A DNA stretch of 15,350 nt from IMG/VR virus record IMGVR_UViG_2690316153_000018; one strand, 5' to 3'. A program made the translations under genes and the position numbers. Below, one piece after another: positions 1,926 to 14,043 of the stretch; position 1 is the first letter of the stretch, and each line of letters starts with the position of its first letter. The DNA comes from a virus. Its lineage: Duplodnaviria; Heunggongvirae; Uroviricota; Caudoviricetes. The notes under the pieces are model-generated. The model was not told the DNA's origin and did not search any database. It saw only the letters and a list, made by a program, of their open reading frames with translations.

Positions 1926-3029
1926 TCAAACAATCTGGAAAATATTTCTTGGATTTGTAATAGGTCTGTTGATGGAGAACAACTCACGAATTAAATCTTG
2001 GCTCAAGCCAGTTTTCATAAGAATTCTTAGCCAGGTTGCATCATCCAGCATTTCAATCGCCTCGGCCAGCATACCGGGTTCTTCAGGGCGCAAAAGTTCA
2101 TCACCAGGTTCAACTCTCGTATACCCTCTGGAATTAAGATGCATATAGCCAGTTCTTGCCTGTTCCTGGGTCAATAAGCCTAATGCGCTGGCTCGATAAA
2201 TACACATTTTAAGGCTGATTTTCCATCTAAGTTTAAATTCAACCAGAGCATTCCAGTCGAATTGCTTACCTCGTATTCGTGGAAATTCTTTAATGAAAGA
2301 TAACCTGGGAACTAATAAGGCGCTCGAAAAGTGATCGGCTTGTGATTCCGTAAGTTTATCACCTGTCGTTATGCCCTCATGCATTACTAAATGCCCTAAT
2401 TCATGACCTAAATCAGAGCGAAATCTACATATGCTTTTTTTAACATTGTTCCTGATGATAACAGGCCTGTTATTGTGAACAGTAAAAGCATCAACACGAT
2501 CATCGACTCCCGTAACATGCGCAACGATTACCCCTAAACTCTCCGCCAATTTAACCATTGATGATATAGGGCCAAGACCTAAATTCCAGGCACGGCGACA
2601 ATCTTCTGCCACTCGCTCAATATCATTCGGAGTAAGTAATTCAGCCCCTGGGTGCTCCGGTATGTTAACGTCAGGAAATTCGATTTCACCTTCAACAGCA
2701 GAAATTATAATATTAAGAATCTCAGCCCTGGCCAATACACTATTAGTCAGCGTTTGAGTCCTGGACTTCTTACTCCGAAAATGGCAGACATCACTTTCCA
2801 GAGCGTATTTTCGTTCAGTAAAAAGAAAACTGGACTTAATCATAAGCGCTGAAGATATTAACTCAAGACATTGCTCCGATGGCCTGCACCCCTTCTCCAG
2901 TTTGCTAACGAATTGCTTTGTCTTGCCAATTTTTTCGGCTAACTCTTCACAAGAAAGCCCAACAGCCATTCTCGCTAGTTTGAGCTTATCACCCCGATAC
3001 TCAGTGAAGTTATTCACCTGATGTTCCAT
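1926..3029 (-). CDS. Fusion protein: N-terminal XRE-family helix-turn-helix + C-terminal ImmA/IrrE-type (COG2856/DUF955-like) zinc metallopeptidase
   Basis: N-terminus LKLARMAVGLSCEELAEKIGKTKQFVSKLEKG is a typical XRE HTH. HExxH motif present in DLGHELGHLVMHEG. ORF track starts at GTG 3032; an ATG at 3029 is the likelier start. The 5' end overlaps the stop of the upstream gene by about 20 nt. Confidence 0.8.
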   Translation of the reverse strand: MEHQVNNFTEYRGDKLKLARMAVGLSCEELAEKIGKTKQFVSKLEKGCRPSEQCLELISSALMIKSSFLFTERKYALESDVCHFRSKKSRTQTLTNSVLARAEILNIIISAVEGEIEFPDVNIPEHPGAELLTPNDIERVAEDCRRAWNLGLGPISSMVKLAESLGVIVAHVTGVDDRVDAFTVHNNRPVIIRNNVKKSICRFRSDLGHELGHLVMHEGITTGDKLTESQADHFSSALLVPRLSFIKEFPRIRGKQFDWNALVEFKLRWKISLKMCIYRASALGLLTQEQARTGYMHLNSRGYTRVEPGDELLRPEEPGMLAEAIEMLDDATWLRILMKTGLSQDLIRELFSINRPITNPRNIFQIV

Positions 3030-3660
3030 CACTGCTCACATCCAAATCTTTATCCTTCGTACGCCGACGAAGAGGCACCTTATTAATCTCCGCTTCGTCA
3101 GGGAGTGTGTTATAATCAAGAGGCATAAGCGGCATCGATGCTGTAGATTGATGAGAAACTATACTAATCTGAGCACCATAAGTATTAAATCCAACAAGAG
3201 CTACCTCCCAACGAGGCAGTGTGGACTCTAATTCACCATCGCCCTCTTCGGATAAAAAAGGCTCAGCTATGACTCGCCATGTAATATCTTGCTCAGCCTC
3301 AACATCACCAAACAATGAGAGTTGCTCATACTCTACTTTATTTCGACGCAGACGATGTTTCTTTTTGGGGTTATTAATGCAATCTTTGGTAAATTGTAGC
3401 GGAACTTTATTTAAAGCAACTACATAGTCCAACCCCTTGGAAATCATCTCAAGGCCAGGAATTGCATCTTCATTTTGAATAAGATGATTTCTGACCCAAT
3501 CATAAGCCCTTACACCTTCAGACCAGTTGCTGTCTAATGCGTGCTTATGATAGTACAGCTGCTCAAGTACGTTAGCGATCTCCGCCAACAAGTGGCGAAC
3601 ATAGTTTTCAGCAAGATAAGGTTGAAATTCCCAACAAGGAGCTAACTGATTTTCATTCAT
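3010..3660 (-). CDS. hypothetical protein (216 aa), translationally coupled to the downstream HTH-peptidase gene
   Basis: ORF with ATG at 3660; its stop (3012..3010) overlaps the start of the HTH-ImmA gene. No motif I can assign. Confidence 0.7.
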   Translation of the reverse strand: MNENQLAPCWEFQPYLAENYVRHLLAEIANVLEQLYYHKHALDSNWSEGVRAYDWVRNHLIQNEDAIPGLEMISKGLDYVVALNKVPLQFTKDCINNPKKKHRLRRNKVEYEQLSLFGDVEAEQDITWRVIAEPFLSEEGDGELESTLPRWEVALVGFNTYGAQISIVSHQSTASMPLMPLDYNTLPDEAEINKVPLRRRTKDKDLDVSSDGTSGE

Positions 3661-3695: not shown

Positions 3696-3724
3696 ATATT
3701 TTCGCATTTTTCTATTTTTGTCAA
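3696..3724 (-). promoter_or_regulatory. Candidate sigma70 promoter for the 3660..1926 cassette (minus strand)
   Basis: Minus strand has a perfect TTGACA (plus coords 3724..3719), a 17-nt spacer, then a weak -10 AAATAT (3701..3696), about 35 nt upstream of the ATG at 3660. Judged by eye only. Confidence 0.3.
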
Positions 3725-3736
3725 CCAGACTAATGC

Positions 3737-3756
3737 AAAAACCCGCCGAAGCGGGT
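3737..3756 (-). terminator. Rho-independent terminator-like hairpin (minus strand), identical in sequence to the one at 1902..1921
   Basis: Plus strand aaaaaCCCGCcgaaGCGGGt; the minus-strand transcript is the same hairpin followed by UUUUU. It lies about 70 nt downstream of the hokD stop. Confidence 0.45.
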
Positions 3757-3825
3757 TAAGTGCGGGTGCGTTGAGGATGCCTGGCACATCAGAGGTGGCG
3801 GGAGATTACTCCCCCGCCGGGTCTC

Positions 3826-3981
3826 TTACTCCTCAGGTTCGTAAGCTGTGAAGACAGCGACCTCCGTCTGGCCGGTTCGGATTCGTACCTCGCAGAGGTC
3901 TTTCCTCGTTACCAGTGCCGTCACTATGACGGTTAAACAGATGACGATCAGGGCGATTAACATCGCCTTTTGCTGCTTCAT
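3826..3981 (-). CDS. hokD: Hok/Gef-family small membrane toxin (51 aa from the internal ATG; the ORF track extends to 4038)
   Basis: Translation MKQQKAMLIALIVICLTVIVTALVTRKDLCEVRIRTGQTEVAVFTAYEPEE has a single TM helix and the conserved C-terminal Cys/Arg/Tyr-Glu pattern of Hok-family toxins. Matches my recollection of E. coli HokD (RelF). Confidence 0.8.
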   Translation of the reverse strand: MKQQKAMLIALIVICLTVIVTALVTRKDLCEVRIRTGQTEVAVFTAYEPEE

Positions 3982-4660
3982 AGCCTGCTTCTCCTTGCCT
4001 TTCGGCACGTAAGAGGCTAACCTACGTGTGTAGAGCATAGATATGGCCTCAGATTAATGTTAAGCGTCTTGCCGGACGCGTAATGTTAACTGGGGCTTTT
4101 CTCTATCTGCCTTTGGTGTTGATGCCCGAGGCAGATAGCCTCAAGCACCCGCAGCAATTCTACTTAACTACCGTTACCTCGCCAATATGAAATCAATCAG
4201 AAAGGTGATCCATAAGAACAACAGCAAGACAATAAATTGCCATTACAGCAGCAATAGCCAGCGCACATTTGAGAACCAGCACCACAACCTCCTGTATTGG
4301 ACGTACACCAGTCCTGATAAATATGAGGCTGTCTCGTCAGTGATTCAATACAACTACTGGGTATAGTTTCTATGATTTTGTTCTGTGGAAATGGAAAACA
4401 GCAACCAGTCACCACCAGCACTTCTTTAAACATGCCAAGTCACACGCAAGCCAACATTATAGTTCCCTTTGAGCGAGCAGATGAAGCTAGCAAAAATATT
4501 GATCACTTAGGATGCATTACTAACGTTGCTATGTGTTAACGAACAGGGAGTGGGTCATCAGCATAAATATTTATGCAGTAGGTTTCTTTTAGGACTAGAT
4601 TAATCAAAAACATTTAGATAAAATTATAAAATCAAGAAATTGGTGGCAATTAATCTTTAA

Positions 4661-4689
4661 TTGTGCCAGCTGAATTTCGTTATTATAGA
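4661..4689 (+). promoter_or_regulatory. Candidate sigma70 promoter for the membrane-protein/methyltransferase operon
   Basis: TTGTGC (4661..4666), 17-nt spacer, TATAGA (4684..4689), about 35 nt upstream of the ATG at 4725 in an AT-rich leader. By eye only. Confidence 0.3.
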
Positions 4690-4724
4690 AGATTAGCTTT
4701 TTTTTTGAGTGTTTGGAGAGTAAA

Positions 4725-5420
4725 ATGTTAGAACCACCAAAGAGTTATAATGAAATGTTGCCTATGCTCCATAAGGCGACTTTTATTACTACATTTATAT
4801 TTTACCTATCATTAGTCATTTATGGCTACATGCCATTGGTTGGCATTAATGCCAAGTATATCCCCCCCGTTAAAGACTACGAGGAATTTATTAAATGGAT
4901 ATTAACCTTTGGCATATTACCAATTGCATCTTCAGTTTTTTGGTCAGTAATTAGTGGAGCTTTAGATCTACATAATAATGTAGCAAAAATTATTGGAATA
5001 AGGAAGATGTGGGATAGTCATTTAATTATTAAACCATTAGCAAAAATTGCAGGCGTTACGAGAAAATTAACTACTGATGAATCTCACAAGGTAATGAGTA
5101 AACTGTATTACCCAGAAGTTAAAGAGTTAAAAGACAAACATTACGTTGAACTTTTCTGGAACAAAGTTTATTACTTTTGGGTTTTCTTTGAACATACAGT
5201 AATCGCATTTGTTACTATTTTAATAATAAGTATCGCCAAATTAACAAATATATTCTCTGTTACTGGCTCTTTAATTAATCTTTGGTTGTGGATTATTTCT
5301 CTTGTCGCATTTGACTTCCTTATTTTCATAGCATCAGTTAAACCAAGAACAGAAAGCCAAGTAAGACAAATACCTGATAGCAAAATAAAAGAATTCTTTA
5401 ACAATAACAATATTTTTTAA
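4725..5420 (+). CDS. Integral membrane protein with four predicted TM helices (2 TM + ~65-aa loop + 2 TM), function unknown
   Basis: ATG at 4725 preceded by GGAGAG at about 5-nt spacing (the ORF track starts at TTG 4713). Four hydrophobic stretches: ATFITTFIFYLSLVIYGYMPLVGI, FIKWILTFGILPIASSVFWSVISGAL, VYYFWVFFEHTVIAFVTILIISIA, TGSLINLWLWIISLVAFDFLIFIASV. Codon usage is strongly AT-rich. Confidence 0.8.
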   Translation: MLEPPKSYNEMLPMLHKATFITTFIFYLSLVIYGYMPLVGINAKYIPPVKDYEEFIKWILTFGILPIASSVFWSVISGALDLHNNVAKIIGIRKMWDSHLIIKPLAKIAGVTRKLTTDESHKVMSKLYYPEVKELKDKHYVELFWNKVYYFWVFFEHTVIAFVTILIISIAKLTNIFSVTGSLINLWLWIISLVAFDFLIFIASVKPRTESQVRQIPDSKIKEFFNNNNIF

Positions 5421-5426
5421 ACGAGG

Positions 5427-6086
5427 TTGATTTTGAATTACAAAATAAATGGAATAAACATACGTTCAGAAAATGCAGCGAAACCGCACACTATGCCATC
5501 TAACTATCTCTGTAAACAGATTGAAAGCACTAATAAAAATGGCAATGCCCTTGATTTTGGATGTGGAAAACTTAGATATTCAGAACAATTAGTAAATAAA
5601 TTTGAAACTGTGACATTTTTAGATTCCAGAAGACAACTAGAAAGAGTGCAAATTATCAGAGGTGTACAAACCACGATTCCAGATTACGTGATAAATAACT
5701 ATAAGAATGCTAATATTGTTTCTTATGAAAATATAGATAAAATAACAAATCATTATGATTTCATACTTTGCGCAAACGTGCTTTCCGCAATTCCATGTGA
5801 ATCCACAATTCACAAAGTCCTCAGTGCGATTAGAGAATTATTAAAGAGTGATGGTGAAGCACTGATTGTCAATCAATACAAAAGTTCTTATTTCAAGAGG
5901 TACGAGAGCGGTATTAAACATTTGCATGGGTATATATACCAAAACTCTCGCAATGCTTTCTACTATGGTTTATTAGATGTGGATACTGTAAGTAAAATAT
6001 GCTCAGATAATAATTTAGAAATAATAAAATCATGGAGCAAAGCAGGTAGTTCATATGTGGTTGTTGGTAAACATATACATATTTAG
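5427..6086 (+). CDS. Small class-I SAM-dependent methyltransferase-fold protein (about 217-219 aa), substrate unknown
   Basis: Motif I ALDFGCGKL, acidic residue ending beta-2 (TVTFLDS) and a motif-IV-like YDFILCANVLSAIP. Start is TTG at 5427 or 5433; GAGG at 5423..5426 gives good spacing to 5433. The first in-frame ATG is at 5493. Lies 6-12 nt after the stop of the membrane-protein gene. Confidence 0.7.
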   Translation: MILNYKINGINIRSENAAKPHTMPSNYLCKQIESTNKNGNALDFGCGKLRYSEQLVNKFETVTFLDSRRQLERVQIIRGVQTTIPDYVINNYKNANIVSYENIDKITNHYDFILCANVLSAIPCESTIHKVLSAIRELLKSDGEALIVNQYKSSYFKRYESGIKHLHGYIYQNSRNAFYYGLLDVDTVSKICSDNNLEIIKSWSKAGSSYVVVGKHIHI

Positions 6087-6400
6087 TTTATTTCAACAAA
6101 TTATTAGAAAGAGTGATTTGCTTGTTAATTATTAGCTCGGCAGTGCCGGATCAACATGACCCTGCCACTTAGGCCATTGCCGGTTTACCTACTTTTGTAA
6201 GGTTCAGCATGAAGTTTTTATATACTCTTCCTAATATCAATAGTGATGCTCGCTTATGTTAGCTGCTTCTTGTACATAGTAGCCTTCTCCGACAGTACTG
6301 CAATGAGCGGAGAGTAAAAGTCGATAAACAATAAGGAGGTTCACAATAAATATTTCTCGGTGAAACTTTCAAAGCATTCTCTGTTTTGCTAAATCGACAA

Positions 6401-7300
6401 TTATAAATCAACAACATTTAGTGTTATATCAATATTATTTAGCCTTGCAATCTCTGATGAATCACTTGCTATTTTAGCTTTTAATTTATCAATATTAATC
6501 ATATCTTCATGGCTTATATAAACCATATCACCTTGGTTAACTTTAGATTTGTTCACTATGGCTTGAATAACAGACAAATCATCCATTACACCTCTCATAA
6601 ATTTCACCATGCTTTGATCTTTGAAGTCAGATATCGATTTTGAACGTTGCTTACGTTGAATTGTTCCTTTTGTAATTACTTCATTAATTTCTTTTAAACC
6701 AGTGAGCATATCAGACAGACTGCCTTCGCAACTCATCCGATGTTTTATTGCATTGCGATTAATAATATTGAGTATAATTTCGAGTGAATCTTTATCACTC
6801 CATGGATGTAATGATGTATAATCATGATGACGTCGAATGGCGTCAATCATATCCTGGACCATATCTTCATCTGCTTTATCGCAAAGTTCATTCACGAAAT
6901 AGCTGGGGTCGATTATTTTACAATAACTTGGAGTTAGGTATCTTGAGGCTTTACAAAAACCAAAAATATATAAAGTAGAGTATTTATCTTTCAGACTCTC
7001 TCCTATTTCATTTATTTTCTCAAAAGATTCGATAGTTTTTTTAATTTTTGCTGGACTTGCATTCGTAGTAACTTGAACTGCTATCATGTTTTTATTATCA
7101 GCTAAATCAATGGCGGGAAAATTAACTTTAATCTGATTCATGTTTACCAGCTCACCCATTTTCAGCGCGCGAAACATAAAGATGGTCAATGACTCAATTA
7201 TTCTTTCCATGTCATGAAAGCCTGCCTGTTTGCGTTGCGCGATATAAAGCTGGAGTAGTGCAATATCACTCTGTAAGTTTCTAATAAGTGGATCAATCAT
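6401..7300 (-). CDS. hypothetical protein (299 aa); N-terminal region resembles, from memory, a SMEK-type domain
   Basis: ORF with ATG at 7300 and AAGGA about 9 nt upstream. N-terminal HDMERIIESL and NFPAIDLADNKNMIAVQVTTNASPAKIKKTIESF resemble the signature I associate with SMEK-domain proteins; not verified by HMM. AT-rich codon usage; convergent with the 4725..6086 operon. Confidence 0.75.
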   Translation of the reverse strand: MIDPLIRNLQSDIALLQLYIAQRKQAGFHDMERIIESLTIFMFRALKMGELVNMNQIKVNFPAIDLADNKNMIAVQVTTNASPAKIKKTIESFEKINEIGESLKDKYSTLYIFGFCKASRYLTPSYCKIIDPSYFVNELCDKADEDMVQDMIDAIRRHHDYTSLHPWSDKDSLEIILNIINRNAIKHRMSCEGSLSDMLTGLKEINEVITKGTIQRKQRSKSISDFKDQSMVKFMRGVMDDLSVIQAIVNKSKVNQGDMVYISHEDMINIDKLKAKIASDSSEIARLNNIDITLNVVDL

Positions 7301-7552
7301 AGCTAATAATCCTTTTCAATGAAGCTGGAGGTGTGTTTAACTATTAGTTAAATTTCTATTTTTATAGAAACAAGCTTTACAACTTCATCAAAGTTTCTCA
7401 AATCCTAATCCACTTTGCAAATCCACTAACCATGCTGAATGCTTTCTGTTGTTAAACATATCCGCTGCTGGCACCAAGCAGACAAACACACTAACTCTAC
7501 CCTACTCCACAAAAGAGCCAATCAATATCTGAACTAATAAACTTTAATCTCA

Positions 7553-7975
7553 TCACTTCAATAAATATCGAGCATTTCCCTGATAGAATGCTAGTATGCG
7601 CTGCATAACTTCACTCTTCCGGCACTCGCGACAGATTATGTTCTGACGCCTGTCGTAGCGACGTATTTCTCCGTCAGGTAATGACCAGATAAGGTCCGGA
7701 TCAACCGCAGATGGTTCCTTCAGCTTTGCCCTTGAGAGCTTTTTACGGGCATTTTGCCAGTCCTTACGCGCCTGTTCAGACGGGAATAACCCGTAACCAG
7801 AGTTGTATACATCGCCGCTGGCAACCAGCTCTCTTGCGAGAACGCTCATCAGATATCTTGTCGCACCTGTCTTGACTTCCAGTTGCCGTAACGTCTCACG
7901 CCCACTCCGGCGTACGAGTTCAACAACCTGCCCTTTAATTTTTTCCCGCTCTTCTTGTGTAAAAACTTTTGCCAC
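7553..7975 (-). CDS. hypothetical phage protein (140 aa) in the replication-module position
   Basis: GTG start at 7975 preceded by a perfect AGGAGG at 4-nt spacing; begins 40 nt downstream of the O-like gene. Basic, possibly nucleic-acid-binding; no motif assigned. Confidence 0.7.
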   Translation of the reverse strand: MAKVFTQEEREKIKGQVVELVRRSGRETLRQLEVKTGATRYLMSVLARELVASGDVYNSGYGLFPSEQARKDWQNARKKLSRAKLKEPSAVDPDLIWSLPDGEIRRYDRRQNIICRECRKSEVMQRILAFYQGNARYLLK

Positions 7976-8015
7976 AAGCCCTCCTGAAAATTACCTCATG
8001 ACCAGAAATTAACAC

Positions 8016-8981
8016 TTACCCCCTGAAGCCCGGCGGAATTTCGGTATCCGGCTCAGAAATATGATTCACACAACGCTGTACAGACGAACGCCCCAGGCGG
8101 ATAACCAGTTCATCCCATTTTTCGCGAAGCTTTGACGGACTCATGATATTTTTTACCCAGAATGGATCCCGCTGCACCCGACCAAACATTTCACAAATTT
8201 GTCTGTGAGTTCTGCCATCCAGCATCCGCATTGTGCGCACGTCGTTGGCCCATGCGGTCCAGTTGGGTTCTTTCGGTCGCGAAATCTCGCCATCATCGCT
8301 GGCGGCCTGCTCGTAAAGACTCACGATTCGCCCCCAGATCCACTGCGCACACGCCAAATCTTCCTGGCTGCCCCACTGGCGTTTTTTCGCACTGAACACA
8401 ACCGCGTCAGGGTGTCGGGTTAAAAAATCCTGTTCAACCGTCTGCGGGTCCGGTTGCGAAGCTTCCGGACGAGAAGTCTTTTTATTCTCTGTAGTAATCT
8501 CTGTTGTATTCTCTGTAAGATCATCAGGCCATTTTGACCCGATGACATTGAGTCGTTTTGAACCAATGGAGCGTTTCATTTTGACCTCTTCCATCGTGTC
8601 ATTTTGACCTGATGGAGCGGCGCATTTTAAACCGATGGATTCGCTCAATTTGCCACCATCTAAAAGCTCGCTCCCGTAGTTGATCGTGTAGAAATTGGTC
8701 ATATCGCGCTTTGATTTATTGAGCTTTTCACAACGCAAAAGCCCCAGCGTTTTCAGACTTGCAAACGCGCGCTTTAACGTTGACTCTGACCAGAATGGGA
8801 ACTGTTCCAGCCATTGTTCCGTTGTGTTATAAATCCAGCGAACACCATCACATTCCATGCCGGAGTTGGTATCTCTCAACCAGTAGTGCAGTTGTTGCAA
8901 AACAATGGCTTCGTTTAAGCCAATTTTCATTGCCAGCTGCGTGTTTATAACCAGTGGGCGTTCAGCAAAAAGAAGACTCAT
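8016..8981 (-). CDS. Phage replication initiation protein, O-like / replisome-organizer family (tentative)
   Basis: ORF track starts at TTG 9035; the ATG at 8981 (MSLLFAERPLVINTQLAMKIGLNEAIVLQQLHYWL...) has GGATGGA upstream. The N-terminal winged-helix-like region resembles phage replication-initiator N-domains, and the gene sits where O sits in lambdoid phages, downstream of cro. Confidence 0.6.
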   Translation of the reverse strand: MSLLFAERPLVINTQLAMKIGLNEAIVLQQLHYWLRDTNSGMECDGVRWIYNTTEQWLEQFPFWSESTLKRAFASLKTLGLLRCEKLNKSKRDMTNFYTINYGSELLDGGKLSESIGLKCAAPSGQNDTMEEVKMKRSIGSKRLNVIGSKWPDDLTENTTEITTENKKTSRPEASQPDPQTVEQDFLTRHPDAVVFSAKKRQWGSQEDLACAQWIWGRIVSLYEQAASDDGEISRPKEPNWTAWANDVRTMRMLDGRTHRQICEMFGRVQRDPFWVKNIMSPSKLREKWDELVIRLGRSSVQRCVNHISEPDTEIPPGFRG

Positions 8982-11925: not shown

Positions 11926-14043
11926 ATGAGTAAAGTCTTTATTTGCGCTGCTATTCCTGATGAACAGGCCATAAAAGAAGATAGCGCTGTTGCGGTGGCC
12001 ACTGCCATTGAAGCTGGTGATGAGCGTCGCGCACGCGCAAAATTTCATTGGCAATTTCTGGAGCAATTCCCTGCAGCTCAGGACTGCGCTTATAAATTTA
12101 TTGTCTGTGAGGATAAACCCGGCATACCCCGCCCTGCCCTCGATTCCTGGGATGCTGAATATATGCAGGAAAACCGCTGGGATGAGGAGTCTGCTTCCTT
12201 TGTCCCGGTTGAGACTGAATCCGATCCGATGAACGTCACTTTTGACAAGCTGGCCCCTGAAGTACAGAACGCTGTCATGGTTAAGTTCGACACATGTGAA
12301 AACATCACCGTTGATATGGTTATTAGCGCACAGGAATTGTTGCAGGAAGACATGGCAACATTCGACGGACATATCGTTGAAGCGTTGATGAAAATGCCAG
12401 AAGTTAACGCCATGTATCCGGAGCTTAAGCTGCATGCCATCGGGTGGGTTAAGCATAAATGTAAGCCTGATGCCCTTCGCTACGACCGCCAGACTATTTT
12501 TGGCCTTGTCCGTGAACGTCCGATCGACATTCACAAAGACCCTGTGGCACTGAACAAATACATTACTGAATACCTGACTACAAAGGGCGTGTTTGAAGAT
12601 GAAGGAACAAATCAGAGCGCAACTGATACTCTCTCGTCGTCAGTACCAGAAACTGATGCAGTGGAAACGGCAATTCCGGACAACGAAAAAACCGAATGCA
12701 AAGTGGAAGTCGAACCATCTGTAGAGCGTGAGGGGCCGTTCTACTTCCTCTTCACCGACAAGGATGGCGAAAAATACGGTCGCGCAAACAAACTTTCTGG
12801 TCTGGATAAGGCACTGGCTGCCGGGGCTACTGAAATCACGAAAGAAGAATATTTCGCCCGCAAAAACAGTACATACTCAGGTTCACAACAAAATACTGGT
12901 GCATCTGACACGACCGCACAACCAGAGCCGGTAAAAGTTACCGCTGACGAAGTAAACAAAATTATGCAGGCAGCCAATATCAGCCAGCCTGACGCCGATA
13001 AGTTGCTTGCTGCCTCTCGCGGAGAATTTGTTGCAGGGATTAGCGACCCGAATGATCCGAAATGGGTAAAGGGGATGGAAACCCGCGATTCTGTAAACCA
13101 GAACCAGCAAGAATCGGAACAGAACGACCAGAAAGCGGAACAAAACAGCCCAAATACGCAACAAAACGAGCCAGAAACGAAACAACCTGAGCCAGTAGCG
13201 CAACAGGAACCGGAAAAAGTCTGCACCGCCTGCGGTCAAAGCGGTGGTGGCAACTGCCATGATTGTGGCGCGGTGATGGGTGACGCAACATACCAGGAAA
13301 CATTCGATGAAGAGAATCAGGTTGAAGTTCAGGAAAATGATCCGGAGGAAATGGAAGGCGCTGAACATCCACACAAGGAGAATGCTGGTAGCGCTCAGGA
13401 TCACGCCAGCGATAGTGAAACTGGCGAGACGGCAGATCCCTTAATTACGGTGAACGGTCATCACGTTATCACATCCACCAGCAGGACGTGTGACCATCTA
13501 ATGATCGACCTTGAAACCATGGGAAAAAATCCTGATGCCCCGATTATCTCAATAGGTGCAATATTTTTCGATCCGCAAACCGGAGATATGGGACCGGAAT
13601 TTAGTAAGACTATTGATCTGGAAACTGCTGGCGGAGTCATTGATCGGGACACCATTAAATGGTGGCTTAAGCAATCACGCGAAGCGCAATCTGCCATTAT
13701 GACCGATGAAATCCCGTTAGATGATGCACTGTTACAATTGCGGGAATTTATCGACGAAAACTCCGGTGAATTTTTTGTTCAGGTCTGGGGTAACGGTGCA
13801 ACTTTCGACAACGTGATTTTACGCCGTTCATATGAACGGCAGGGGATCCCCTGCCCGTGGCGTTACACCAATGATCGCGATGTAAGAACGATGGTTGCTC
13901 TGGGACTGGTGATGGATTTCGACGCAAGAACGACTATTCCATTCGAAGGTGAACGCCATAACGCTCTGAACGATGCACGTTACCAGGCGAAATACGTTTC
14001 AGCCATCTGGCAAAAACTGCTCCCGAGTCAGGCTGATTTTTAA
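11926..14043 (+). CDS. ydfE: Full-length YdfE-like protein (705 aa) with C-terminal DEDD-type (DnaQ-like) 3'-5' exonuclease domain
   Basis: Long uninterrupted ORF. C-terminus has exonuclease motifs MIDLETMG (Exo I), [12 protein letters not shown] (Exo II) and HNALNDARY (Exo III). A CxxC-x8-CxxC zinc-ribbon-like motif ([16 protein letters not shown]) and an acidic/Gln-rich low-complexity linker precede it. Confidence 0.85.

Follow-up and report, generated by a model that had tools for sequence, protein, structure and literature searches.

A probable composite anti-phage islet in a lambdoid prophage, joining a diverged ymfE-ymfD allele to a stand-alone SMEK gene

The AT-rich island at positions 4440 to 7552 of the window analyzed here (a 15,350-nucleotide stretch of prophage DNA) is probably a composite islet of anti-phage cargo made up of two functionally separable units, namely, a diverged allele of the ymfE-ymfD gene pair of Escherichia coli K-12 and a stand-alone gene for a SMEK-domain protein. 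This reading draws on the homology, synteny, composition, and genomic contexts observed here, together with the phage defense described in the literature for K-12 YmfE (“Kunado”). As originally predicted, the island encodes a 4-TM membrane protein, a SAM-dependent methyltransferase starting 12 nucleotides past the stop codon of the membrane protein gene, and a convergently transcribed protein of 299 amino acids. The same prediction had nominated the island as an undescribed system, yet it is not a categorically new one: the first two genes are an allele of ymfE-ymfD, and YmfE has been shown to act against T5-like phages, a connection that was unknowable from the sequence alone.

An AT-rich cassette in a variable prophage slot

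In 500-nucleotide intervals from 4501 to 7500, GC content was 0.30 to 0.35 throughout, compared with 0.44 to 0.52 on both sides (0.328 for 4440 to 7552 versus 0.468 for the remainder of the window). The GC3 of the three island genes was 0.26 to 0.28 (0.276, 0.257, and 0.270), versus 0.35 to 0.68 for all 13 other genes measured. These values bear out the AT-rich island that had been placed by eye at about 4440 to 7550. Homology to a strain with a nearly empty slot broke at 4305 and resumed at 7679, and an 83%-identical copy in another phage backbone (the ECO20 allele) delimited a common cassette at 4558 to 7472; the predicted coordinates were therefore right to within about 100 nucleotides.

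The cassette occupies a slot of highly variable cargo in a DicB/Qin-type lambdoid prophage, with hok/sok on one side and the DUF977/replication genes on the other. Both flanks belong to the phage backbone and lie outside the cassette. On the left (3826 to 4150, minus strand) is a type I toxin-antitoxin consisting of the hok toxin gene (3826 to 4038; PF01848, E = 3e-23) and the sok antisense RNA (3976 to 4150; Rfam RF01794, 114 bits). On the right is the DUF977 gene (7553 to 7975, minus strand; PF06163, E = 2e-30), which begins the replication module and is followed by the replication genes. At the same hok|DUF977 junction, other strains carry AbiH, RelA/SpoT, DUF4209, NUDIX plus HAD, AAA ATPases, and other cargoes, and across E. 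coli prophages the DUF977 gene is conserved beside a wide variety of cargoes, making this junction of DicB-type lambdoid prophages a one-slot-many-cargoes site of use for defense-gene mining. A class I methyltransferase found in this slot in another locus (H63) is encoded by a different, unrelated 118-amino-acid gene. RosmerTA is also among the defense neighbors in this prophage. The earlier view of the island as an acquired moron stands: the AT-rich cargo entered the prophage horizontally, its slot is rich in defense genes, and defense is the best reading.

Upstream of the membrane protein gene, the cassette begins with an AT-rich noncoding leader (4558 to 4724, plus strand) that is 83% identical to that of the ECO20 allele; the GC content of the region from 4440 to 4724 was 0.33. 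The leader is presumed, by analogy with the K-12 lit/ymfE locus, to be a promoter and H-NS target region. No strong match to the sigma-70 consensus was found within it, and, over the island as a whole, candidate promoters and terminators were no more numerous than in shuffled sequence. The convergent spacer between the methyltransferase and SMEK genes (6087 to 6400; GC content, 0.376) also falls within the ECO20-common cassette and showed no terminator-like hairpin by a simple scan. The right end of the cassette is formed by the region upstream of the SMEK gene (7301 to 7472, minus strand), presumptively its promoter region, where ECO20 homology stops at 7472; the GC content of 7301 to 7552 was 0.345. 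Given such extreme AT-richness, H-NS would probably silence both units, as has been shown for K-12 lit/ymfE.

The membrane protein and its methyltransferase partner

The first gene of the island (open reading frame 4713 to 5420, plus strand; RefSeq start, the ATG at 4725) encodes a 231-amino-acid protein (4725 to 5420) that is assigned to the Kunado (YmfE) family of inner membrane proteins by full-length homology, with 60% amino acid identity over residues 1 to 230 to K-12 YmfE (YmfE of strain RP437; cluster P0029). Its AF2 model (pLDDT 86) is all-helical with four long hydrophobic helices, and hydropathy and the positive-inside rule predict an N-in/C-in topology with a basic cytoplasmic loop of 60 residues. 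The protein had zero matches in Pfam, PADLOC, NCBIfam, and PHROG, is annotated in RefSeq as “hypothetical protein” (WP_000892866), and returned no papers in a literature search by RefSeq protein accession.

What such a protein might do is suggested by K-12, where ymfE was needed for defense against T5-like phages in a delta-hns background and where the cloned gene protected without blocking adsorption, placing its action at a postadsorption step, with superinfection exclusion as the proposed mechanism (bioRxiv 10.64898/2026.09.05.749240, an unreviewed preprint). The K-12 lit/ymfE locus is H-NS bound and compacted, and defense appears once silencing is lifted (10.64898/2026.09.05.749240). By homology, the membrane protein of the first unit (4558 to 6086) would likewise block T5-like phages after adsorption, probably at DNA entry, rather than act as the abortive-infection effector originally envisaged. 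Defense by the island allele is extrapolated from a homolog that is 60% identical, and its phage range or mechanism may differ from that of K-12 YmfE.

The second gene (open reading frame 5427 to 6086, plus strand) has its RefSeq start at a TTG at 5433, preceded by a GAGG Shine-Dalgarno sequence, and is predicted to be translationally coupled to the membrane protein gene. Its product (5433 to 6086; 217 amino acids) is a YmfD-like class I SAM-dependent methyltransferase by homology to K-12 YmfD (68% amino acid identity) and by matches above cutoffs to Pfam Methyltransf_12 and Methyltransf_23 (E of about 2e-8). The subfamily signature S-E-x-A-A-K-P ... L-D-x-G-C-G-K-L-R-Y-S ... N-V-L-S-A-x-P was invariant down to 31% identity, and a D-S motif closing strand 2 was also invariant. 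The nearest solved structures were those of TehB, UbiG, and MJ0882-type enzymes. Assignment as a TehB tellurite resistance enzyme was rejected, as the NCBIfam TehB scores (28 to 29 bits; E of about 1e-6) fell far under the curated equivalog cutoffs of 218 and 303 and the Pfam TehB match (PF03848; 24.4 bits, E = 2e-5) was one of many overlapping generic methyltransferase matches. PD-lambda-5, an E. coli defense system with a methyltransferase domain, was likewise rejected, there being no PADLOC match beyond a weak, generic one to mad2 (E = 1e-4). Neither a [DNS]PP[YFW] nor a C5 DNA-methyltransferase motif was found on direct reading of the sequence, nor did any DNA-methyltransferase family in Pfam or NCBIfam match, and we do not think that the target is DNA.

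The two genes together were 68.9% identical in nucleotide sequence to e14 ymfE-ymfD over 97% of the length of the pair. In a survey of 65 loci, the methyltransferase gene lay directly downstream of the membrane protein gene in all 64 that had room for it, down to 25% identity, and the two proteins codiverged (membrane protein/methyltransferase percent identities of 100/100, 91/85, 85/81, 78/67, 63/68, 60/68, 59/62, 34/42, and 25/31). Distant relatives checked by gene context had a partner of the same subfamily adjacent or overlapping in 4 of 4 cases, including the 34% and 25% alleles, and a partner from a soil metagenome that was outside model building scored 150 bits against the subfamily HMM. 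For the distant clade, a scan of genome contigs yielded five loci only, and the proteins P0174, P0168, and P0198, searched singly, had no matches among viral contigs. Counting the e14 ymfED allele, 434 of 5,426 complete E. coli genomes carried this two-gene cassette. By this conservation, the methyltransferase appears to be an evolutionarily obligate companion of the membrane protein. The gene-neighborhood check put forward in the original prediction came out in full for these two genes (64 of 64 loci) but linked the SMEK gene to them only in close alleles.

The pair occurs at classic defense sites. In P2-like prophages it comes immediately after ogr; in a P4-like element it is accompanied by gop-beta-cII-type genes and a reverse transcriptase (RVT_1) gene; elsewhere it lies within a type I restriction-modification operon between hsdS and hsdR, near an OLD-family nuclease, or, in e14, beside lit. 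Further locations include integrase islets, Providencia, Enterobacter, and soil and marine metagenomes. The P2-like and P4-like hotspots show the same one-slot-many-cargoes behavior as the hok|DUF977 slot at a different site. Compared with e14, the island pair has the same gene order, tight coupling, 4-TM architecture, and AT-rich prophage-edge location, but it differs in its site (the att-proximal end of e14 versus the lambdoid hok|DUF977 junction), in its defense neighbors (lit versus hok/sok and RosmerTA), and in the presence of a convergent SMEK gene, which e14 lacks. An anonymous cassette of “hypothetical protein plus methyltransferase” is hereby tied to a defense function that has only just been demonstrated.

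For the methyltransferase, K-12 offers less guidance. The Kunado preprint nowhere mentions ymfD, describes a system of one gene, YmfE, and is silent on whether the cloned ymfE fragment included ymfD (10.64898/2026.09.05.749240); from its report of “two hits,” the ymfD knockout would not have been among the hits of the e14 screen. If ymfE alone is enough, and if the ymfD knockout was indeed no screen hit, the sole known phenotype would not need the methyltransferase, strictly conserved though it is. That ymfD is a constant partner across very deep divergence nonetheless means that the Kunado system may be incompletely defined. As to its role, we infer that it either works on, or together with, the conserved side of the membrane protein that faces the cytoplasm or has a small-molecule or protein target there. 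A bolder reading, which we hold only tentatively and consider rather unlikely, is that Kunado is a two-component, methylation-dependent inner membrane defense with a coinherited YmfD-type partner and that the stand-alone 300-amino-acid SMEK family is a new single-gene nuclease defense. The methyltransferase would then work at conserved residues on the cytoplasmic side of the membrane protein (Y8, H83, R93, Y129, and H139) and would methylate the membrane protein itself or a phage or host factor; a two-component methylation-dependent inner membrane defense, if true, would have no described precedent.

The SMEK gene

The gene of the second unit (6401 to 7472, minus strand, with its upstream region) runs convergently to the pair and encodes a stand-alone SMEK-domain protein of 299 amino acids (6401 to 7300). 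An N-terminal Mrr-like, PD-(D/E)xK-type domain (about residues 5 to 140) is joined to a C-terminal domain that is helical and conserved. The former was recognized by Pfam SMEK_N (PF21941; 79.9 bits versus a cutoff of 27), by NCBIfam NF033859 (105.1 bits versus a cutoff of 30), and by similarity to PDB entry 26bh_D, “Mrr domain from Kordia jejudonensis Mrr-APAZ pAgo” (E = 7e-8 with a single sequence and 9e-13 with a profile). The original prediction had missed this SMEK/Mrr-like nuclease domain.

Residues E36, D65, Q76, T78, and K85 were invariant among 25 diverse homologs, as were 15 positions in the C-terminal domain (within residues 166 to 274). The AF2 model (pLDDT 83.5) gave no significant nuclease match in Foldseek. 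Where canonical nucleases have (D/E)-x-K, the core motif here is Q-x-T with the lysine displaced, and because of this replacement, nuclease activity of the SMEK domain stays putative. Homology to the Kordia SMEK/Mrr-APAZ protein covers the N-terminal ~120 residues, with a common core N-F-P-A-I-D-L-A-D ... A-x-Q-[VI]-T ... K-I; the C-terminal 160 residues, in contrast, form a different conserved helical domain, and the island protein is encoded by a single gene. The C-terminal domain had no family match in Pfam, PADLOC, NCBIfam, or PHROGs, and the PADLOC model for an Argonaute-associated REase matched residues 8 to 146 only. An Argonaute gene was absent from the window and from all contexts of SMEK homologs examined. 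The gene was rejected as a SMEK-APAZ short pAgo effector, having neither an APAZ domain nor an adjacent Argonaute gene.

Full-length homologs were found alone in unrelated islets of gamma-, beta-, and alphaproteobacteria, with neighbors that included Abi_alpha, SLATT_5, SymE/TacAT, a Lamassu-type operon, and AAA_15/21 genes. From these contexts and its domain matches, we infer that the SMEK protein is an independent, single-gene, nuclease-based defense or restriction factor, and we nominate this widespread stand-alone SMEK/Mrr-like family, always in defense islets, as a candidate single-gene defense.

One unit or two, and alternative readings

The SMEK gene does travel with the pair in some alleles, as ECO20 and the survey of 65 loci show. 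Among close alleles, the arrangement of the trio is constant and the three genes codiverge as a block at 83 to 91% (membrane protein, 85 to 91%; methyltransferase, 81 to 85%; SMEK protein, 83 to 90%), one such allele belonging to another phage backbone, whose replication genes are of the RepO/DnaB kind. With block codivergence in at least two phage backbones, the SMEK gene and the pair may to some degree cooperate functionally. It is nevertheless quite improbable that the three genes form a single integrated defense system, e.g., of sensor, modifier, and effector, as the original prediction had suggested in treating them together. The pair occurs without the SMEK gene in all alleles at or below 78% (K-12 e14, Providencia, Enterobacter, the P4-like element, the type I restriction-modification operon, and the soil and marine metagenomes) and in five alleles at 83 to 86% for which 2.9 to 6 kb of downstream sequence was available; the SMEK gene stands alone in many unrelated proteobacterial genomes; in E. 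coli sublineages, it is frameshifted while the pair is intact; and K-12 YmfE defends although e14 has no SMEK gene. A restriction-modification-like division of labor, in which the methyltransferase modifies DNA and the Mrr-like SMEK nuclease restricts it, would suit the adjacent, convergent placement of the two genes and the relatedness of the SMEK domain to the folds of Mrr/AspBHI restriction nucleases, yet we regard it as extremely improbable. The methyltransferase has none of the DNA-methyltransferase motifs or Pfam families, its closest relatives, TehB and UbiG, act on small molecules, and it is coupled to the membrane protein gene and not to the SMEK gene, from which it is usually apart. 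Moreover, Mrr-like enzymes are typically modification dependent and need no cognate methyltransferase (type IV restriction).

Two further alternatives to the favored reading of separable defense units concern the pair itself. Translational coupling of a small multipass membrane protein to a strictly conserved methyltransferase, among toxin-antitoxin and Abi genes (hok/sok, RosmerTA, and, in e14, lit), would be expected of a toxin-antitoxin or abortive-infection module in which a membrane-damaging toxin is curbed by the methyltransferase until infection. This is nonetheless improbable. Two observations from work with other aims speak against it: the Keio strain lacking ymfD shows normal growth (PMC12096079), although any toxicity there could be hidden by the silencing of ymfE by H-NS, and ymfE is said to protect when cloned alone, with toxicity not reported (10.64898/2026.09.05.749240). 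In addition, an antitoxin gene that follows its toxin gene is atypical in order. Doubtful to a similar degree is a nondefense role in lysogenic conversion or physiology, e.g., small-molecule or lipid methylation with a membrane partner, in the manner of tehA-tehB, where a membrane protein gene is likewise found beside that of a class I SAM methyltransferase of about 200 amino acids. The weak similarity to TehB and the reduced early biofilm formation of a K-12 ymfD knockout (PMC3105296) would fit such a role. On the other hand, the TehB scores are an order of magnitude under the cutoffs (28 bits versus 218), the island membrane protein has 4 TM helices and no relationship to TehA, which has 10, the pair resides, in contrast to the TehA-TehB operon, in mobile defense islets and hotspots, and YmfE has a direct phage-defense phenotype (10.64898/2026.09.05.749240).

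Composition and gene content of the island

The AT-rich character of the island (4440-7552), claimed in the original prediction, was borne out by windowed and third-position GC, both of which set it apart from its flanks. GC was 0.30 to 0.35 in each 500-nt window across 4501-7500 versus 0.44 to 0.52 on both sides, and 0.328 for the island as a whole versus 0.468 for the remainder of the window; third-position GC was 0.26 to 0.28 in the three island genes versus 0.35 to 0.68 in the 13 other genes measured. The AT-rich block is real and has sharp borders. All three predicted genes were also confirmed: on the plus strand, a 231-aa hydrophobic membrane protein (4725-5420) is followed, 12 nt past its stop codon, by a class I SAM methyltransferase (5433-6086) with a TTG start and GAGG in front, and a convergent 299-aa gene lies on the minus strand (6401-7300). 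The left flank consists of hok and the sok RNA, and the right flank of DUF977 followed by replication genes, ydaT, dicC, and dicA, with DicF farther along; these flanking genes identify the backbone as a DicB/Qin-type lambdoid prophage.

The membrane protein and its methyltransferase partner

The membrane protein had no match in the family libraries searched, and relatives sharing at least 39% identity with it occurred in Enterobacterales only. A sensitive nucleotide search matched the pair (membrane-protein and methyltransferase genes) to ymfE-ymfD of the K-12 e14 prophage, with 68.9% nucleotide identity over 97% of the length; protein identities were 60% to YmfE and 68% to YmfD. In K-12, these genes occupy the margin of e14, flanked by icd and by lit, which encodes the classic T4-exclusion peptidase. 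The pair adds a new and diverged member to a just-described system. Both defense by K-12 YmfE and H-NS control of its locus have been shown in the literature, in a preprint of 11 September 2026 (bioRxiv 10.64898/2026.09.05.749240): deletion of hns in BW25113 or MG1655 reveals defense against T5-like phages, the lit/ymfE region is compacted and H-NS bound, and, among the e14 genes screened with Keio mutants, lit (T4) and ymfE (T5-like phages) were the two hits. Carried on pBR322 with its native promoter, ymfE protected a prophage-free strain against T5-like phages with different receptors and did not block adsorption; the authors proposed superinfection exclusion at DNA entry and renamed the protein Kunado, a name found in no other paper in the literature searched. 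The preprint text makes no mention of ymfD or of any methyltransferase. Elsewhere, ymfD is still given as an uncharacterized putative methyltransferase; the Keio ymfD knockout grows normally (PMC12096079), and early biofilm formation was reduced in a ymfD knockout (PMC3105296).

The constancy of the methyltransferase partner is a point that the Kunado study overlooked. An exhaustive profile search yielded 218 representative relatives of the membrane protein; among the best 150 of these, about 130 are 210 to 260 aa long and the others are mostly shorter fragments, and pairwise identity in a sample of 25 relatives was 18 to 60%, mostly 20 to 45%. When 65 loci encoding a relative were collected and scored by tblastn, each of the 64 with room for one had a homologous methyltransferase immediately downstream; the two genes are at most 12 nt apart, abut in K-12, and overlap by as much as 23 nt. 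The two proteins diverge together (membrane protein/methyltransferase identities of 100/100, 91/85, 85/81, 78/67, 63/68, 60/68, 59/62, 34/42, and 25/31%), and the same pairing recurred in the gene contexts of four distant relatives, two of which are the 34% and 25% alleles. A methyltransferase partner from a soil metagenome, outside the model-building set, scored 150 bits against the subfamily HMM. Invariant in this subfamily are an N-terminal S-E-x-A-A-K-P, then L-D-x-G-C-G-K-L-R-Y-S, and also N-V-L-S-A-x-P. The closest solved relatives are the small-molecule enzymes TehB, UbiG, and MJ0882 (E=1e-5 to 1e-3), and neither [DNS]PP[YFW] nor a C5 DNA-methyltransferase motif occurs in the methyltransferase sequence. 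The main tension concerns this partner: should ymfE alone suffice, and should the ymfD knockout have given no hit (our own reading of the two hits in the e14 screen), the strict conservation of the methyltransferase would lack an explanation.

Hydropathy and charge distribution predict four transmembrane helices with both termini cytoplasmic and a 60-residue cytoplasmic loop (residues 81-140) containing 12 Lys/Arg. Under this topology, the family-wide conserved Y8, H83, R93, Y129, and H139 face the cytoplasm or lie at the membrane interface, so that they would form a surface accessible to a methyltransferase in the cytoplasm or to an early protein of a phage; the conserved W152 and E156 are placed in TM3.

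The genomic settings of the pair are typical defense sites. It comes immediately after ogr in P2-like prophages (Enterobacter and Providencia) and is found in a P4-like element that also carries Beta_protein/cII, relaxase, and reverse-transcriptase genes, inside a type I restriction-modification operon between hsdS and hsdR, and in an integrase islet with an OLD-family nuclease nearby; at other loci, it adjoins a P4-type primase, an integrase, or the prophage-chromosome border.

In one MG1655 assembly (L026, NZ_CP010440.1, 6002-6705), ymfE is annotated as a frameshifted pseudogene, and it is intact in RP437 (L029) and other K-12 records; the frameshift reflects a sequencing error or else a difference between laboratory lineages, and would influence Kunado phenotypes. 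In a K-12-like 4.6-Mb record (L073, 6709-7038), the ymfD homologue aligned over residues 1-110 only and may be truncated or disrupted.

The SMEK gene and its relation to the pair

The convergent 299-aa gene encodes a SMEK_N domain (79.9 bits in Pfam and 105 bits in NCBIfam, both well over the cutoffs) and matches the solved "Mrr domain" of Mrr-APAZ, a short-Argonaute effector from Kordia jejudonensis (E=7e-8 as a single sequence and 9e-13 as a profile). In the literature, SMEK is regarded as an Mrr-like PD-(D/E)xK nuclease domain found in short pAgo effectors (PMC10810196; bioRxiv 10.1101/2023.06.08.544223); unlike those effectors, the 299-aa protein lacks an APAZ domain and an accompanying Argonaute gene. 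Homologues that match over the full length, each about 300 aa long, are present in gamma-, beta-, and alpha-proteobacteria at identities down to 42%, with one outlier at 31%. Residues E36, D65, Q76, T78, and K85 are invariant among them, and the C-terminal domain, helical in an AF2 model (pLDDT 83.5) and with no informative structural match found, is conserved equally well. The gene belongs to an annotated but uncharacterized family, and this stand-alone SMEK family is a defense candidate. In the contexts examined, it had no constant neighbor and always lay within variable, defense-type islets: adjoining Abi_alpha in Vibrio, integrases and an AAA_13 ATPase or else SymE and TacAT in Enterobacter, SymE and helicase/DUF87 genes in Cupriavidus, a 219-aa gene and SLATT_5 in Pseudomonas, and, in Citrobacter, between a Lamassu-type operon and AAA_15/AAA_21 genes. 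The Pseudomonas homologue, the same-strand 219-aa gene downstream of it, which had no family match, and the SLATT_5 membrane protein that comes next may form a small operon (L011, 6958-7617 and 8002-8700; L012).

Cooperation between the pair and the SMEK gene, as implied by the original prediction of an undescribed three-gene system, is possible. The SMEK gene lies convergently downstream of the pair in all alleles with at least 99% identity and in the 91% alleles, and also in four alleles at 84 to 85%, one of them in a different phage backbone, where it has itself diverged to 83 to 84%; the three genes have thus been co-inherited for some time. However, this co-occurrence does not extend to five other alleles at 83 to 86%, from which the SMEK gene is absent despite 2.9 to 6 kb of downstream sequence, nor to any allele at 78% or below, the experimentally active K-12 locus included. 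Moreover, the SMEK gene is frameshifted beside an intact pair in strain SLK172 and in chicken-isolate lineages, an arrangement seen in 7 of the 25 best hits as judged by annotation pattern; in one such lineage, an IS4-family insertion sits upstream of the pair, inside no gene. Defense islets typically hold separate modules as neighbors, and we conclude that the pair and the SMEK gene are two such modules, adjacent in one clade. With the SMEK gene separable and the pair a diverged allele of ymfE-ymfD, the three-gene system was not upheld.

From the homology, synteny, genomic contexts, and composition observed here, we infer a phenotype for the window's allele, a role for the methyltransferase, and an activity for the SMEK protein. 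We judge it likely that the island combines a Kunado-like membrane protein, a companion methyltransferase, and an independent SMEK nuclease factor, all silenced by H-NS. The membrane protein would behave like K-12 Kunado, residing in the inner membrane and blocking T5-like or other phages once they have adsorbed, probably as their DNA enters. The methyltransferase would be its functional companion at the cytoplasmic face, with the membrane protein or a phage or host factor, rather than DNA, as the putative target. The SMEK protein may act as an independent nuclease-based factor, possibly modification dependent, as seen in other Mrr-like enzymes. We propose that H-NS keeps all three genes quiet because they are AT-rich.

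Distribution and the hok-DUF977 slot

Of 5,426 complete E. coli genomes, 153 carried the 3.1-kb island (146 copies at least 99% identical), and it occurred in none of the phage collection searched; once the e14 ymfE-ymfD allele is counted, 434 of the 5,426 genomes carry a copy. Comparison of 3700-8100, flanks included, with these genomes revealed the hok-DUF977 junction to be a site where a single slot takes up many different cargoes. In other strains, it holds RelA/SpoT-domain, AbiH, DUF5677, DUF4209, NUDIX plus HAD, AAA-ATPase, Sll1717-type P-loop, QueH, alpha/beta-hydrolase, or DUF7167 genes, and in some strains the slot is almost empty. This slot of DicB/Qin-type lambdoid prophages is perhaps worth mining systematically as a defense hotspot. 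Against a near-empty slot, homology stops at 4305 and restarts at 7679, and the cassette held in common with the ECO20 copy, which is 83% identical and set in another phage backbone, spans 4558-7472. The approximately 250 nt at 4306-4557, which contain a 55-aa ORF (4372-4539), match neither comparator and may be a remnant of earlier cargo. Three short contigs (L030, L031, and L032) filed as 'Candidatus Scatousia', 'uncultured Haemophilus', and 'Streptomyces sp.' assemblies carry the E. coli cassette at 90 to 100% identity, most likely reflecting contamination or mis-binning rather than true host range.

Directly left of hok, on the minus strand, lies a RosmerTA defense pair (1926-3660; GC 0.42) composed of RmrA (1926-3032; HTH_3 plus Peptidase_M78; PADLOC PDLC03943, E=6e-105) and RmrT (3010-3660; PDLC03929, E=5e-25; phrog_5786, E=8e-85). 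It is missing at the same position in strains C7 and NEBExpress and is therefore a second, independent cargo insertion. Farther to the right, on the plus strand, a 705-aa exonuclease gene (11926-14043) contains an extended acidic stretch of low complexity in its middle, rich in Gln/Glu/Pro, which gives rise to a very strong AT skew (as high as 0.39 at 12751-13250); the homologous gene in strain C7 is longer (2,472 nt).
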